Source: Naegleria gruberi (Eukaryota). From it: 7,327 nt of DNA. Each line of letters starts with the position of its first letter. The stretch's first letter is position 1. Positions 831 through 7,327 of the stretch are shown here, piece by piece. Under the pieces are notes generated by a model that saw only the letters and a list, made by a program, of their open reading frames with translations, made no database searches and was not told where the DNA came from. Location: assembly GCA_000004985.1 (NCBI GenBank), contig GG739146.1. One strand, 5' to 3'. A program made the position numbers and the translations under genes.

Positions 831-1375
831 ATGGTCGCTAAGAAGCCTCAAGATATTGACTCCTCTTCATCTGATGAAGATCTCCCAGCAGTTGAAGTAG
901 AATACCCCACAACACCAGTGAAAGCAAGAAAACAACAAGCTGCTAAGAAGCTTAGAAAGTTAAAGGCCATGTCACCTGTAGCTAATAGAAATAAGCGCAA
1001 ACAATCTACTTCAGTTTCATCATCTAACAGTGCCTTAGATGATGGTATTTCAACTGTTGTTTCCAGTTCGTTGCTAAGCAATTCAACTTTGTTGGATAGT
1101 TCTTCAACTGCACCCTCTTCGTCAAACAATTCGTCTTCTTCCAATTCAGGTAGAGATAGTTTTGCCAGTAGTTCATCTGAACATGATATCATGGCGATCA
1201 AAGCCCAAATGCAAGAAATGATTGGAGTTTTGAGAACCGTAACAGGAAATATCTCTGAACTTACTAAGAAAGTTCAGGAGAGAGAAGAAGAATCAGATGA
1301 TGATTTTGTTAATCCAGAAGCTATATCTCCAGAAGTTTGGTTACGTCAAACTTATAGAGACCTTAGAAGTTCTTA
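831..1375 (+). CDS. 5' part of a gene for a Ser-rich, hydrophilic protein with basic NLS-like clusters; truncated by the assembly gap (3' end not in the readable sequence)
   Basis: ATG at 831 in an A-rich context (A at -3). The open frame runs uninterrupted to the gap edge. Codon use is yeast-like: Arg is almost all AGA, with TTG, GAA and AAG favoured. The protein begins MVAKKPQDIDSSSSDEDL, has basic patches KARKQQAAKKLRKLK and NRNKRKQ, and a predicted helical, charged segment AIKAQMQEMIGVLRTV...KKVQEREEESDDD. There is no N-terminal hydrophobic signal peptide. The antisense ORF 848-1201 is the mirror of the Ser-codon tracts and is less likely. Confidence 0.6.
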
Positions 1376-4300
1376 NNNNNNNNNNNNNNNNNNNNNNNNN
1401 NNNNNNNNNNNNNNNNNNNNNNNNNNNNNNNNNNNNNNNNNNNNNNNNNNNNNNNNNNNNNNNNNNNNNNNNNNNNNNNNNNNNNNNNNNNNNNNNNNNN
1501 NNNNNNNNNNNNNNNNNNNNNNNNNNNNNNNNNNNNNNNNNNNNNNNNNNNNNNNNNNNNNNNNNNNNNNNNNNNNNNNNNNNNNNNNNNNNNNNNNNNN
1601 NNNNNNNNNNNNNNNNNNNNNNNNNNNNNNNNNNNNNNNNNNNNNNNNNNNNNNNNNNNNNNNNNNNNNNNNNNNNNNNNNNNNNNNNNNNNNNNNNNNN
1701 NNNNNNNNNNNNNNNNNNNNNNNNNNNNNNNNNNNNNNNNNNNNNNNNNNNNNNNNNNNNNNNNNNNNNNNNNNNNNNNNNNNNNNNNNNNNNNNNNNNN
1801 NNNNNNNNNNNNNNNNNNNNNNNNNNNNNNNNNNNNNNNNNNNNNNNNNNNNNNNNNNNNNNNNNNNNNNNNNNNNNNNNNNNNNNNNNNNNNNNNNNNN
1901 NNNNNNNNNNNNNNNNNNNNNNNNNNNNNNNNNNNNNNNNNNNNNNNNNNNNNNNNNNNNNNNNNNNNNNNNNNNNNNNNNNNNNNNNNNNNNNNNNNNN
2001 NNNNNNNNNNNNNNNNNNNNNNNNNNNNNNNNNNNNNNNNNNNNNNNNNNNNNNNNNNNNNNNNNNNNNNNNNNNNNNNNNNNNNNNNNNNNNNNNNNNN
2101 NNNNNNNNNNNNNNNNNNNNNNNNNNNNNNNNNNNNNNNNNNNNNNNNNNNNNNNNNNNNNNNNNNNNNNNNNNNNNNNNNNNNNNNNNNNNNNNNNNNN
2201 NNNNNNNNNNNNNNNNNNNNNNNNNNNNNNNNNNNNNNNNNNNNNNNNNNNNNNNNNNNNNNNNNNNNNNNNNNNNNNNNNNNNNNNNNNNNNNNNNNNN
2301 NNNNNNNNNNNNNNNNNNNNNNNNNNNNNNNNNNNNNNNNNNNNNNNNNNNNNNNNNNNNNNNNNNNNNNNNNNNNNNNNNNNNNNNNNNNNNNNNNNNN
2401 NNNNNNNNNNNNNNNNNNNNNNNNNNNNNNNNNNNNNNNNNNNNNNNNNNNNNNNNNNNNNNNNNNNNNNNNNNNNNNNNNNNNNNNNNNNNNNNNNNNN
2501 NNNNNNNNNNNNNNNNNNNNNNNNNNNNNNNNNNNNNNNNNNNNNNNNNNNNNNNNNNNNNNNNNNNNNNNNNNNNNNNNNNNNNNNNNNNNNNNNNNNN
2601 NNNNNNNNNNNNNNNNNNNNNNNNNNNNNNNNNNNNNNNNNNNNNNNNNNNNNNNNNNNNNNNNNNNNNNNNNNNNNNNNNNNNNNNNNNNNNNNNNNNN
2701 NNNNNNNNNNNNNNNNNNNNNNNNNNNNNNNNNNNNNNNNNNNNNNNNNNNNNNNNNNNNNNNNNNNNNNNNNNNNNNNNNNNNNNNNNNNNNNNNNNNN
2801 NNNNNNNNNNNNNNNNNNNNNNNNNNNNNNNNNNNNNNNNNNNNNNNNNNNNNNNNNNNNNNNNNNNNNNNNNNNNNNNNNNNNNNNNNNNNNNNNNNNN
2901 NNNNNNNNNNNNNNNNNNNNNNNNNNNNNNNNNNNNNNNNNNNNNNNNNNNNNNNNNNNNNNNNNNNNNNNNNNNNNNNNNNNNNNNNNNNNNNNNNNNN
3001 NNNNNNNNNNNNNNNNNNNNNNNNNNNNNNNNNNNNNNNNNNNNNNNNNNNNNNNNNNNNNNNNNNNNNNNNNNNNNNNNNNNNNNNNNNNNNNNNNNNN
3101 NNNNNNNNNNNNNNNNNNNNNNNNNNNNNNNNNNNNNNNNNNNNNNNNNNNNNNNNNNNNNNNNNNNNNNNNNNNNNNNNNNNNNNNNNNNNNNNNNNNN
3201 NNNNNNNNNNNNNNNNNNNNNNNNNNNNNNNNNNNNNNNNNNNNNNNNNNNNNNNNNNNNNNNNNNNNNNNNNNNNNNNNNNNNNNNNNNNNNNNNNNNN
3301 NNNNNNNNNNNNNNNNNNNNNNNNNNNNNNNNNNNNNNNNNNNNNNNNNNNNNNNNNNNNNNNNNNNNNNNNNNNNNNNNNNNNNNNNNNNNNNNNNNNN
3401 NNNNNNNNNNNNNNNNNNNNNNNNNNNNNNNNNNNNNNNNNNNNNNNNNNNNNNNNNNNNNNNNNNNNNNNNNNNNNNNNNNNNNNNNNNNNNNNNNNNN
3501 NNNNNNNNNNNNNNNNNNNNNNNNNNNNNNNNNNNNNNNNNNNNNNNNNNNNNNNNNNNNNNNNNNNNNNNNNNNNNNNNNNNNNNNNNNNNNNNNNNNN
3601 NNNNNNNNNNNNNNNNNNNNNNNNNNNNNNNNNNNNNNNNNNNNNNNNNNNNNNNNNNNNNNNNNNNNNNNNNNNNNNNNNNNNNNNNNNNNNNNNNNNN
3701 NNNNNNNNNNNNNNNNNNNNNNNNNNNNNNNNNNNNNNNNNNNNNNNNNNNNNNNNNNNNNNNNNNNNNNNNNNNNNNNNNNNNNNNNNNNNNNNNNNNN
3801 NNNNNNNNNNNNNNNNNNNNNNNNNNNNNNNNNNNNNNNNNNNNNNNNNNNNNNNNNNNNNNNNNNNNNNNNNNNNNNNNNNNNNNNNNNNNNNNNNNNN
3901 NNNNNNNNNNNNNNNNNNNNNNNNNNNNNNNNNNNNNNNNNNNNNNNNNNNNNNNNNNNNNNNNNNNNNNNNNNNNNNNNNNNNNNNNNNNNNNNNNNNN
4001 NNNNNNNNNNNNNNNNNNNNNNNNNNNNNNNNNNNNNNNNNNNNNNNNNNNNNNNNNNNNNNNNNNNNNNNNNNNNNNNNNNNNNNNNNNNNNNNNNNNN
4101 NNNNNNNNNNNNNNNNNNNNNNNNNNNNNNNNNNNNNNNNNNNNNNNNNNNNNNNNNNNNNNNNNNNNNNNNNNNNNNNNNNNNNNNNNNNNNNNNNNNN
4201 NNNNNNNNNNNNNNNNNNNNNNNNNNNNNNNNNNNNNNNNNNNNNNNNNNNNNNNNNNNNNNNNNNNNNNNNNNNNNNNNNNNNNNNNNNNNNNNNNNNN

Positions 4301-6358
4301 NNNNNNNNNNNNNNNNNNNNNNNNNNNNNNNNNNNNNNNNNNNNNNNNNNNNNNNNNNNNNNNNNNNNNNNNNNNNNNNNNNNNNNNNNNNNNNNNNNNN
4401 NNNNNNNNNNNNNNNNNNNNNNNNNNNNNNNNNNNNNNNNNNNNNNNNNNNNNNNNNNNNNNNNNNNNNNNNNNNNNNNNNNNNNNNNNNNNNNNNNNNN
4501 NNNNNNNNNNNNNNNNNNNNNNNNNNNNNNNNNNNNNNNNNNNNNNNNNNNNNNNNNNNNNNNNNNNNNNNNNNNNNNNNNNNNNNNNNNNNNNNNNNNN
4601 NNNNNNNNNNNNNNNNNNNNNNNNNNNNNNNNNNNNNNNNNNNNNNNNNNNNNNNNNNNNNNNNNNNNNNNNNNNNNNNNNNNNNNNNNNNNNNNNNNNN
4701 NNNNNNNNNNNNNNNNNNNNNNNNNNNNNNNNNNNNNNNNNNNNNNNNNNNNNNNNNNNNNNNNNNNNNNNNNNNNNNNNNNNNNNNNNNNNNNNNNNNN
4801 NNNNNNNNNNNNNNNNNNNNNNNNNNNNNNNNNNNNNNNNNNNNNNNNNNNNNNNNNNNNNNNNNNNNNNNNNNNNNNNNNNNNNNNNNNNNNNNNNNNN
4901 NNNNNNNNNNNNNNNNNNNNNNNNNNNNNNNNNNNNNNNNNNNNNNNNNNNNNNNNNNNNNNNNNNNNNNNNNNNNNNNNNNNNNNNNNNNNNNNNNNNN
5001 NNNNNNNNNNNNNNNNNNNNNNNNNNNNNNNNNNNNNNNNNNNNNNNNNNNNNNNNNNNNNNNNNNNNNNNNNNNNNNNNNNNNNNNNNNNNNNNNNNNN
5101 NNNNNNNNNNNNNNNNNNNNNNNNNNNNNNNNNNNNNNNNNNNNNNNNNNNNNNNNNNNNNNNNNNNNNNNNNNNNNNNNNNNNNNNNNNNNNNNNNNNN
5201 NNNNNNNNNNNNNNNNNNNNNNNNNNNNNNNNNNNNNNNNNNNNNNNNNNNNNNNNNNNNNNNNNNNNNNNNNNNNNNNNNNNNNNNNNNNNNNNNNNNN
5301 NNNNNNNNNNNNNNNNNNNNNNNNNNNNNNNNNNNNNNNNNNNNNNNNNNNNNNNNNNNNNNNNNNNNNNNNNNNNNNNNNNNNNNNNNNNNNNNNNNNN
5401 NNNNNNNNNNNNNNNNNNNNNNNNNNNNNNNNNNNNNNNNNNNNNNNNNNNNNNNNNNNNNNNNNNNNNNNNNNNNNNNNNNNNNNNNNNNNNNNNNNNN
5501 NNNNNNNNNNNNNNNNNNNNNNNNNNNNNNNNNNNNNNNNNNNNNNNNNNNNNNNNNNNNNNNNNNNNNNNNNNNNNNNNNNNNNNNNNNNNNNNNNNNN
5601 NNNNNNNNNNNNNNNNNNNNNNNNNNNNNNNNNNNNNNNNNNNNNNNNNNNNNNNNNNNNNNNNNNNNNNNNNNNNNNNNNNNNNNNNNNNNNNNNNNNN
5701 NNNNNNNNNNNNNNNNNNNNNNNNNNNNNNNNNNNNNNNNNNNNNNNNNNNNNNNNNNNNNNNNNNNNNNNNNNNNNNNNNNNNNNNNNNNNNNNNNNNN
5801 NNNNNNNNNNNNNNNNNNNNNNNNNNNNNNNNNNNNNNNNNNNNNNNNNNNNNNNNNNNNNNNNNNNNNNNNNNNNNNNNNNNNNNNNNNNNNNNNNNNN
5901 NNNNNNNNNNNNNNNNNNNNNNNNNNNNNNNNNNNNNNNNNNNNNNNNNNNNNNNNNNNNNNNNNNNNNNNNNNNNNNNNNNNNNNNNNNNNNNNNNNNN
6001 NNNNNNNNNNNNNNNNNNNNNNNNNNNNNNNNNNNNNNNNNNNNNNNNNNNNNNNNNNNNNNNNNNNNNNNNNNNNNNNNNNNNNNNNNNNNNNNNNNNN
6101 NNNNNNNNNNNNNNNNNNNNNNNNNNNNNNNNNNNNNNNNNNNNNNNNNNNNNNNNNNNNNNNNNNNNNNNNNNNNNNNNNNNNNNNNNNNNNNNNNNNN
6201 NNNNNNNNNNNNNNNNNNNNNNNNNNNNNNNNNNNNNNNNNNNNNNNNNNNNNNNNNNNNNNNNNNNNNNNNNNNNNNNNNNNNNNNNNNNNNNNNNNNN
6301 NNNNNNNNNNNNNNNNNNNNNNNNNNNNNNNNNNNNNNNNNNNNNNNNNNNNNNNNNN
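1376..6358. other. Assembly gap: 4,983 consecutive Ns, with one further N at 6385
   Basis: Directly visible. The length is not a multiple of 3 and not a round number, which suggests an estimated scaffold gap in a draft assembly. The content is unknown. The ORF track shows long poly-X ORFs on both strands (1341-6362 minus; 831-6398 and 1297-6393 plus), which confirms they carry no coding signal. Confidence 0.95.
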
Positions 6359-6468
6359 ACAACTTGGTTTATTGTCAGATTGCTNTAATTTAGTTTAGTT
6401 TTTGCTTTTTGTTAAGAAATCATAGTATGATTGTATTGATTAGTTTATTTAATTTCTGGACCTGCTGA

Positions 6469-6648: not shown

Positions 6649-7104
6649 ATGCAAAGACCAAACATTTCACAGGATTTAGAGTCTCACATTTCCAGCAGCA
6701 CATCAACAGCTTCATTTTCCAACTTACCTTACGTTAATTCAGAGAAACATCTAATCAAGTCAAATGTCAATGGCAAGTCAAGATGTAATTTACCTACAAT
6801 TCTCTTACTATTATTCATCCTCACAAGTTTGGTGATGATTTTTTATTTGACGTCCAAGCGAGGAGTAAGAGGAGAAGCCAGAGTATTCCCTGTCACTTAT
6901 CTAGATGTCGATTTCACAAATTCTGAAAATTTAAAACTCAACCGAGTGAGAGGTCTTTGTAAAATATTCTTATCAACCTATTATTTGTTTAATTATAATG
7001 AAAAATCACCTAATTATGTTCCACCAACAGTTATTGGTGCTGACGGTGCTCCTGAAGCAAAATATAGTAAGTTTGATGGTTGGCATTTAATTAGTGAAAA
7101 TTGA
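6649..7104 (+). CDS. Putative type II (N-in) single-pass membrane protein, 151 aa as annotated. Ser-rich cytosolic tail, transmembrane segment LPTILLLLFILTSLVMIFYL encoded at 6790-6849, lumenal domain. Possibly the N-terminal part of a Golgi-type glycosyltransferase.
   Basis: ATG in the context ttcaaaaaaaATGc. Codon use is yeast-like (AGA for Arg). One 20-residue hydrophobic stretch has K/R on both sides (KSR before; KRGVRGEAR after), an architecture typical of fungal Golgi glycosyltransferases. The frame ends at TGA 7102-7104 but continues open in the same frame (see 7105-7302). Confidence 0.5.
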   Translation: MQRPNISQDLESHISSSTSTASFSNLPYVNSEKHLIKSNVNGKSRCNLPTILLLLFILTSLVMIFYLTSKRGVRGEARVFPVTYLDVDFTNSENLKLNRVRGLCKIFLSTYYLFNYNEKSPNYVPPTVIGADGAPEAKYSKFDGWHLISEN

Positions 7105-7302
7105 CATGTGAAATGTAAAGCTCATTGGAAGAAGATTGAGAGGACTTTTCAATTTTTATCGGGTGGAGAGTCTAACTATATTGATGATCATGATATTATT
7201 GTTTTCAGTGATGCAACAGATGTTTTATTCATCAATAATATTGAAAATGTCAAGAAAGTATACGAAACTTACTATATCAAGGAAATTGCTAATATTGATT
7301 GA
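7105..7302 (+). pseudogene. In-frame continuation of the 6649-7104 reading frame beyond its TGA stop (65 codons, ends TGA 7300-7302), containing a GT-A/GT32-like glycosyltransferase motif. Interpreted as the remainder of an interrupted glycosyltransferase gene: pseudogene or draft sequencing error.
   Basis: Both the 6649 and 7108 ORFs are in frame 1. The translation reads ...DGWHLISEN*HVKCKAHWKKIERTFQFLSGGESNYIDDHDIIVFSDATDVLFINN.... The track's ORF at 7108 starts on GTG, not ATG, so it is not an independent eukaryotic gene. The pattern R-x-F-x-F-L-x-G-G-(x)-Y-I-D-D-H-D followed by hhh-F-S-D-A-T-D-V-h resembles, from memory, the D-L-L-R-Y-x-x-L-x-x-x-G-G-x-Y-x-D-x-D signature of the Och1/Sur1/Gb3-synthase family (GT32, Pfam Gly_transf_sug) and generic GT-A DxD motifs. 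A stop only about 27 codons after the motif is far too early for a complete GT-A domain. Confidence 0.3.
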
Positions 7303-7327
7303 AAGATAGGAGAGAGATGGCCTATGG

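Follow-up and report, generated by a model that had tools for sequence, protein, structure and literature searches.

We analyzed a 7,327-nucleotide stretch of Naegleria gruberi DNA (contig GG739146.1 of assembly GCA_000004985.1, hereafter the window), in which two open reading frames (ORFs) of the same frame are separated by a TGA codon at positions 7102 to 7104. It is nearly certain, in our assessment, that this TGA lies in an ordinary 54-nucleotide (nt) GT-AG spliceosomal intron of a glycosyltransferase-like gene. The initial annotation of the window had read the two ORFs as one gene interrupted by an internal stop, ascribing the stop to a recent nonsense mutation, to a base-call error in a draft assembly, or to readthrough or recoding. 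The one-gene part of that reading stands, whereas none of the three causes holds for the TGA at 7102.

A short intron between two reading frames

Frame 1 holds ORF 6649-7104 (151 amino acids, ATG start) and ORF 7108-7302 (64 amino acids, GTG start), between which lie the TGA and one CAT codon (7105-7107). The downstream ORF has no ATG ahead of its DxxD motif and carries IIVFSDATDVLF. We reproduced all of this layout as first described, including the coordinates, the frame, the CAT codon and the GTG call. From 6649 to the window end, frame 1 contains two stops, both TGA (7102 and 7300), and not a single TAA or TAG, and it remains open beyond the second TGA up to the window end, which the first reading had missed; in the other frames over the same region, all three stop codons are abundant. 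Also overlooked at that stage was GTAAGT at 7067 as a splice donor, from which the following structure is obtained.

6649..7066, plus strand: exon 1, from ATG 6649; ends in phase 1, one base into a Thr codon
7067..7120, plus strand: intron 1, 54 nt, phase 1, donor GTAAGT at 7067-7072, acceptor AAAG (AG at 7119-7120)
7121..7327, plus strand: exon 2, partial, running off the window, (T)HWKKIERTFQFLSGGESNYIDDHDIIVFSDATDVLFINNIENVKKVYETYYIKEIANID...

Intron 1 is AT-rich (GC content, 0.30), and its excision yields ...GAPEAKY-T-HWKKIERTF..., a continuous frame in agreement with the homologous proteins. Nineteen GT..AG excisions remove the TGA while keeping the frame intact and free of stops; of these, 7067-7120 scored highest against both reference proteins and was the sole candidate with a GTAAGT donor. 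The alignment scores against the two reference proteins were 306 and 222 for the spliced translation, versus 274 and 203 for the readthrough translation. The donor and the AG acceptor agree with the consensus of the lineage: 8 of 9 introns in the loci compared here start with GTAAGT, and all end with AG, at lengths of 37 to 139 nt. Besides, an NCBI protein model of this region (P0001, considered below) likewise closes its last exon at 7066, directly before GTAAGT. An acceptor at 7093-7094, which lay beyond the range of the enumeration and was worked out by hand, leaves an in-frame stop.

We propose that the GTAAGT...AAAG intron would be spliced out, taking the TGA away ahead of translation, and that exons 1 and 2 would seem to be in the same frame merely since 54 divides by three. 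The two ORFs share a frame because the intron measures 18 times three nucleotides. The prior chance that an intron length is divisible by three is about 1 in 3, and the chance of at least one stop in 18 codons at the local base composition is 77%; therefore, neither the shared frame nor the TGA is remarkable. The TGA itself is intronic and overlaps TTGAC (7101-7105), a YTNAY-like sequence 16 nt upstream of the acceptor, which makes TTGAC a possible branch site. In the spliced mRNA the TGA is untranslated, and it would act as a premature stop only upon intron retention.

Checking orthologous loci for a sense codon at the TGA had been suggested; the relatives show an intron there instead, as follows.

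Window, N. gruberi scaffold: 7067-7120, GTAAGT..AAAG, 54 nt (a multiple of three), junction EAKY-T-HWKKIERTF
L001, ENA metagenome contig: 1873-1922, GTAAGT..TAG, 50 nt, junction ETPY-T-HWKKIERTL
L004/L005, two environmental contigs of another relative: L004:615-651, GTATGT..CAG, 37 nt, junction TPY-T-HWKKVENL
L002, N. fowleri FDP41_001017: 3497-3635, GTAAGT..CAG, 139 nt, junction TPYTHWKKVEK

The exons of L001 share about 74% nucleotide identity with the window. Its interval has exactly the same phase-1 placement; read in the exon 1 frame, it holds four stops, and it shifts the frame. Intron 1 and the L001 intron are 58.6% identical with 12 gap columns, compared with 74% for the flanking exons, and the interval thus evolves as noncoding sequence. 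The three other lengths (50, 37 and 139 nt) are not divisible by three, and in-frame stops occur in all of these intervals. When four GTAAGT..AG introns (139, 111, 96 and 67 nt) are removed from the N. fowleri locus, the annotated 454-amino-acid protein is reproduced exactly. This annotation had been produced with BRAKER1, which is trained on RNA sequencing (RNA-seq) data (PMC6831594). At the protein level, the annotated N. fowleri, N. lovaniensis and Willaertia homologues match the spliced junction (Y-[T/S]-HWKK) and run continuously over it, as expected for one gene. More broadly, N. lovaniensis, Willaertia magna and paralogues in three Naegleria species read Y-[T/S/G/A]-HW[K/R]K, and an 18-residue insert is absent from all of them.

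Several observations weigh against this interpretation. The acceptor AAAG is not preceded by a polypyrimidine tract, although the other Naegleria introns that we examined also lack one (e.g., CAAAAG at N. fowleri intron 3). Only three of the four loci agree exactly in the position of intron 1. A local indel places it three codons farther 5' with respect to HWKK in N. fowleri and N. lovaniensis (TF-T-PYTHWKK versus PY-T-HWKK); the offset may reflect a slight shift of the intron boundary or else a 9-nt exonization or duplication. We infer splicing of intron 1 in vivo from the splice signals and the comparative structure. A scan of JGI metagenome and metatranscriptome contigs with the exact exon 2 start found no spliced copy, and a protein-pattern scan of JGI metagenome contigs found no further loci. 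Two Logan contigs (L006 and L007) span junction 1 in neither case.

Gene structure and the state of the scaffold

The cytoplasmic tail, the transmembrane anchor and the stem are all encoded by exon 1, as is the first of the conserved blocks (ARVFPVTYLD...PPTVIGADG). The upstream ORF had been taken as the anchor part of the enzyme, and we indeed found one strong hydrophobic segment in it.

6796..6852, plus strand: transmembrane segment TILLLLFILTSLVMIFYLT, residues 50 to 68, the top 19-residue Kyte-Doolittle window (mean, 2.5)

This segment is predicted to act as a type II signal-anchor, and equivalent hydrophobic segments are present in L001, N. fowleri and the paralogues. The start context ATGCAAAGAC at 6649 is common to the window and L001. 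The L001 ORF can be extended by 20 codons 5' of its called start (1305-1364), up to ATGCAAAGAC; judging from this context, the true start of L001 is probably MQR..., as in N. gruberi.

The remainder of the gene was recovered from L003, a 1237-bp contig of a separate project (ENA ERZ929261) that overlaps the window at 6937-7327. Over 6937-7297 there is one difference in 361 bases, a synonymous T/C at 7179. Exon 2 continues in L003 to a second intron (L003:454-504), which has GTAAGT..TAG borders and, at 51 nt, is again a multiple of three, and then to a third exon (L003 505-1113). The third exon corresponds exactly to P0005, a 195-amino-acid N. gruberi "predicted protein" located on a 782-kb scaffold. 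Hence the gene is spread over two scaffolds of the reference assembly, and the likely place of the 7.3-kb scaffold is beside the P0005 locus. With both introns removed, the window plus L003 gives an uninterrupted 431-amino-acid protein that is collinear with, and 45% identical to, the N. fowleri protein.

Mismatches with L001 at codon positions 1, 2 and 3 numbered 15, 9 and 28 in exon 1; 15, 7 and 44 in exon 2; and 12, 7 and 20 in exon 3, so that third positions account for 28/52, 44/66 and 20/39 of the mismatches, respectively. This pattern shows that the exons are under purifying selection and argues against a pseudogene.

The second TGA of frame 1 has a different origin. The initial annotation took TGA 7300-7302 as the natural end of the downstream ORF, and it is here that its idea of a base-call error proved correct.

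7298..7327, plus strand: error-laden contig end, 4 differences in 30 bases compared with L003

A single T is missing at each of three places (after 7298, 7309 and 7317), and position 7326 is a mismatch. By comparison with L003, TGA 7300-7302 is evidently an artifact of dropped T's, and the true codon is TTG (Leu). The corrected reading, GAT TTG AAA GAT AGT GAG AGA GAT TGG CCT ATT, encodes IDLKDSERDWPI, which agrees with the L001 and N. fowleri counterparts (IDLEADGEKDWPL and IDLENDAEKRWPI, respectively), with the Leu conserved in both; the corrected sequence expected over 7290-7327 is GATTTGAAAGATAGTGAGAGAGATTGGCCTATT. The frame seemingly continues past the artifact (...ERWPM) because the three deletions total three bases. 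An intron was also considered as the cause of TGA 7300 and was rejected, since the interval contains no GT, coding conservation with L001 reaches the TGA, and L003 shows the dropped T's.

The protein model mentioned above is affected by the state of the scaffold as well. P0001 ("predicted protein, partial [Naegleria gruberi]," 247 amino acids) was matched by the readthrough translation in a protein search, and we were able to reproduce it from 831..1368 plus 6863..7066. The implied intron is 5494 nt long, and 4983 nt of it are the N gap.

831..1368, plus strand: 5' exon of an unrelated upstream Ser-rich gene, fused in P0001 to 6863-7066
1376..6358, no strand: scaffold gap of 4983 N

N calls in the assembly had been pointed out before, and our count confirmed them: in addition to the gap, there is a single N at 6385. 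To judge by these coordinates, P0001 is a chimera in which the unrelated Ser-rich gene is joined to the glycosyltransferase-like gene over the N gap, and it omits the true ATG at 6649 and the transmembrane anchor. Thus, the curation value of the analysis lies in a chimeric N. gruberi model, a missing start and transmembrane anchor, errors in the last 30 bases, and a gene split over scaffolds, and an environmental contig lets the complete 431-amino-acid protein be rebuilt.

Two neighboring features were noted besides. In L003, an 89-nt intron-containing tRNA gene (1140-1228, minus strand) lies convergent to the glycosyltransferase-like gene, 27 nt 3' of its stop codon; it was detected with Rfam RF00005 (50.4 bits), and ARAGORN found none in L003. 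The window also has, in AT-rich sequence 5' of its first gene, a 65-nt direct repeat at 104-168 and 328-392 (71% identity, 224-nt spacing), of which the 3' core, TTGAAGTAAACGTGCTGTA, is perfectly conserved.

Alternative explanations for the TGA

A recent nonsense mutation, by which TGA replaced a sense codon in a once-continuous exon and turned the gene into a pseudogene, would account for the same-frame ORFs, the single stop between them and the lack of an ATG in the second ORF. However, the 18 codons of 7067-7120 have no counterpart in any homologue, and the corresponding intervals of the relatives are not multiples of three, differ in length and contain several stops. The exons on either side show a strong third-position bias, the mark of purifying selection. 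Once spliced, the gene encodes an intact 431-amino-acid protein. We regard pseudogenization as extremely improbable. A base-call or assembly error at TGA 7102-7104 would not be surprising in so poor a scaffold, with its 4983-N gap, stray N and demonstrable errors in the last 30 bases, but L003, an independent assembly, is identical through the whole intron, including the TGA. Besides, the intervening 54 nt would still be an intron even if the TGA were absent. There is hardly any chance that such an error explains the TGA.

Programmed readthrough or recoding of the TGA (as selenocysteine, Trp or Cys) would give a continuous product of 218 or more residues, and the retained interval would be translated across the TGA as SKFDGWHLISEN-x-HVKCKA. 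That both stops of frame 1 are TGA superficially resembles a code in which TGA is a sense codon. The second TGA, however, is the dropped-T artifact at a Leu TTG, and neither TGA thus occupies a conserved sense position. The interval around TGA 7102 has GTAAGT..AG borders, and its 18 codons are not conserved; in the relatives the same interval measures 50, 37 or 139 nt, contains TAA and shifts the frame. In addition, the readthrough product aligns worse than the spliced one with both reference proteins, as scored above. Readthrough, which the initial annotation had itself ranked as the least likely of its three causes, is in our view scarcely credible. A ciliate- or Mycoplasma-like genetic code, suggested by the TGA-only frame 1, was rejected likewise, as both TGAs are otherwise explained.

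Regulated intron retention differs from these readings in that it accepts the intron: some transcripts would keep it, giving either a target of nonsense-mediated decay (NMD) or a 151-amino-acid membrane-anchored stem protein with no catalytic domain. Short introns with lengths divisible by three are the class that is retained without a frame shift, an in-frame stop in such an intron fits NMD surveillance of unspliced RNA, and the second N. gruberi intron of the gene (51 nt) also belongs to this class. In other eukaryotes, stop-free introns of this length class are counter-selected (PMC2911113). Nothing specific favors retention, however; a stop is expected at 77% by chance in 18 AT-rich codons, and a length divisible by three is not kept in the relatives (50, 37 and 139 nt). 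We consider regulated retention very unlikely. Equally doubtful to us is the notion that the TGA is functionally maintained as a safeguard or switch, with retention leading to NMD down-regulation or to the catalytically dead 151-amino-acid stem protein. The element is an ordinary spliceosomal intron with nothing unusual about it, and the case illustrates how bacterial-style ORF reasoning on eukaryotic DNA can make a short intron with a length divisible by three look like an internal stop.

The encoded protein and its relation to known systems

The 431-amino-acid protein would consist of a cytoplasmic tail, one transmembrane segment, a stem and a glycosyltransferase A (GT-A)-like domain with a DxxD...H signature, the first part of which is encoded in exon 2.

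7210..7221, plus strand: DxxD motif (GAT GCA ACA GAT), D170-A-T-D173, predicted to bind Mn2+ and UDP (uridine diphosphate)-sugar

By a PDB profile match and hhalign, D170 and D173 align with Asp112 and Asp115 (VDSYD) of LH3, and H357 (in HSNGG) aligns with His253. These three LH3 residues have been reported to be Mn2+ ligands (PMC6082870), and the metal-binding residues DxxD...H of PF25342 (GT_PLOD) are accordingly all present. The protein has also kept the motifs YLNSG, EDQ and HSNGG together with DxxD. From such features, the product is probably an Mn2+-dependent, UDP-sugar-using type II membrane glycosyltransferase and a distant relative of LH3 and R699. We infer glycosyltransferase activity and a Golgi or endoplasmic reticulum localization.

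Regarding the family, PF04488 (Gly_transf_sug) and PF03407 (Nucleotid_trans), which had been named as the families to search, gave no match at an E value of ≤10 for the readthrough, spliced or full-length version, and a Pfam scan of window fragments gave no match. A family profile searched against PDB matched R699 (9dyt) with an E value of 3.7e-6 and the glycosyltransferase domain of LH3 weakly; a PDB sequence search with a three-sequence profile gave no match. Alignment to the N-terminal glycosyltransferase domain of LH3 by hhalign had a probability of 95.5% and an E value of 1.4e-8 over 158 columns. The aligned stretches of the LH3 sequence used for it agree with chain 6wfv_A. When 1.84 billion representatives were searched exhaustively with HMMER, only 19 relatives came up, and all named ones among them are hypothetical proteins of Naegleria or Willaertia. 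These searches point to a family restricted to Naegleria and Willaertia that is distantly related to LH3/PLOD and to the collagen glycosyltransferase domain of mimivirus R699. The family (P0003, P0006, P0007, P0009-P0012 and P0024) has several paralogues per species, and its nearest solved relative is a giant-virus enzyme.

Some results count against this placement. The composite protein matched PF25342 with an E value of 9.9e-6 and 25.4 bits, which falls below the 27-bit gathering threshold. Membership of PF25342 is not demonstrated. An AlphaFold2 model built from eight sequences was poor, with a mean predicted local distance difference test (pLDDT) score of 48, and Foldseek on this model returned only GT-A enzymes as top matches, none of them significant (E value of ≥0.08; template modeling score [TM] of about 0.2 to 0.3). 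As for other members of the family, the N. fowleri protein reached 14.2 bits against PF25342, and 6 of 9 family members matched at an E value of ≤0.1, the best being a distant member (E value of 2e-19). A small family confined to Naegleria and Willaertia and related to the collagen glycosyltransferases of animals and giant viruses is a minor lead of this work.

Compared with canonical U2-type Naegleria introns, as in N. fowleri FDP41_001017, intron 1 is alike in its GTAAGT donor, AG acceptor, short length, AT richness and phase-1 site. Nothing of substance differs; what is particular here is the length divisible by three and one in-frame TGA, which is why scanning for ORFs as in prokaryotes yields a pair of them in one frame.

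Among glycosyltransferases, LH3/PLOD3 (PF25342; PDB 6fxk and 6wfv) resembles the Naegleria protein around the DxxD motif, with FSDATDV in Naegleria and FVDSYDV in LH3, and the alignment pairs further motifs, namely AE..CWP/AEKNKWPP, FLNSGG/YLNSGL, DDDQ/EDQ and HGNGP/HSNGG. In contrast to LH3, which has a signal peptide, the Naegleria protein has a type II membrane anchor; it is devoid of lysyl hydroxylase or accessory domains and possesses, at its C terminus, about 70 additional residues rich in Cys, and the UDP-stacking Tyr114 of LH3 is replaced by Thr. R699 (PDB 9dyt), known as a mimivirus collagen galactosylhydroxylysyl glucosyltransferase (PMC9546862 and PMC12279948), gives the best match to the family profile among solved structures; it covers the domain half that holds YLNSG...DDQ...HGNG, with significant alignment for only about 115 residues. 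R699 differs from the Naegleria protein in being a soluble viral two-domain enzyme.

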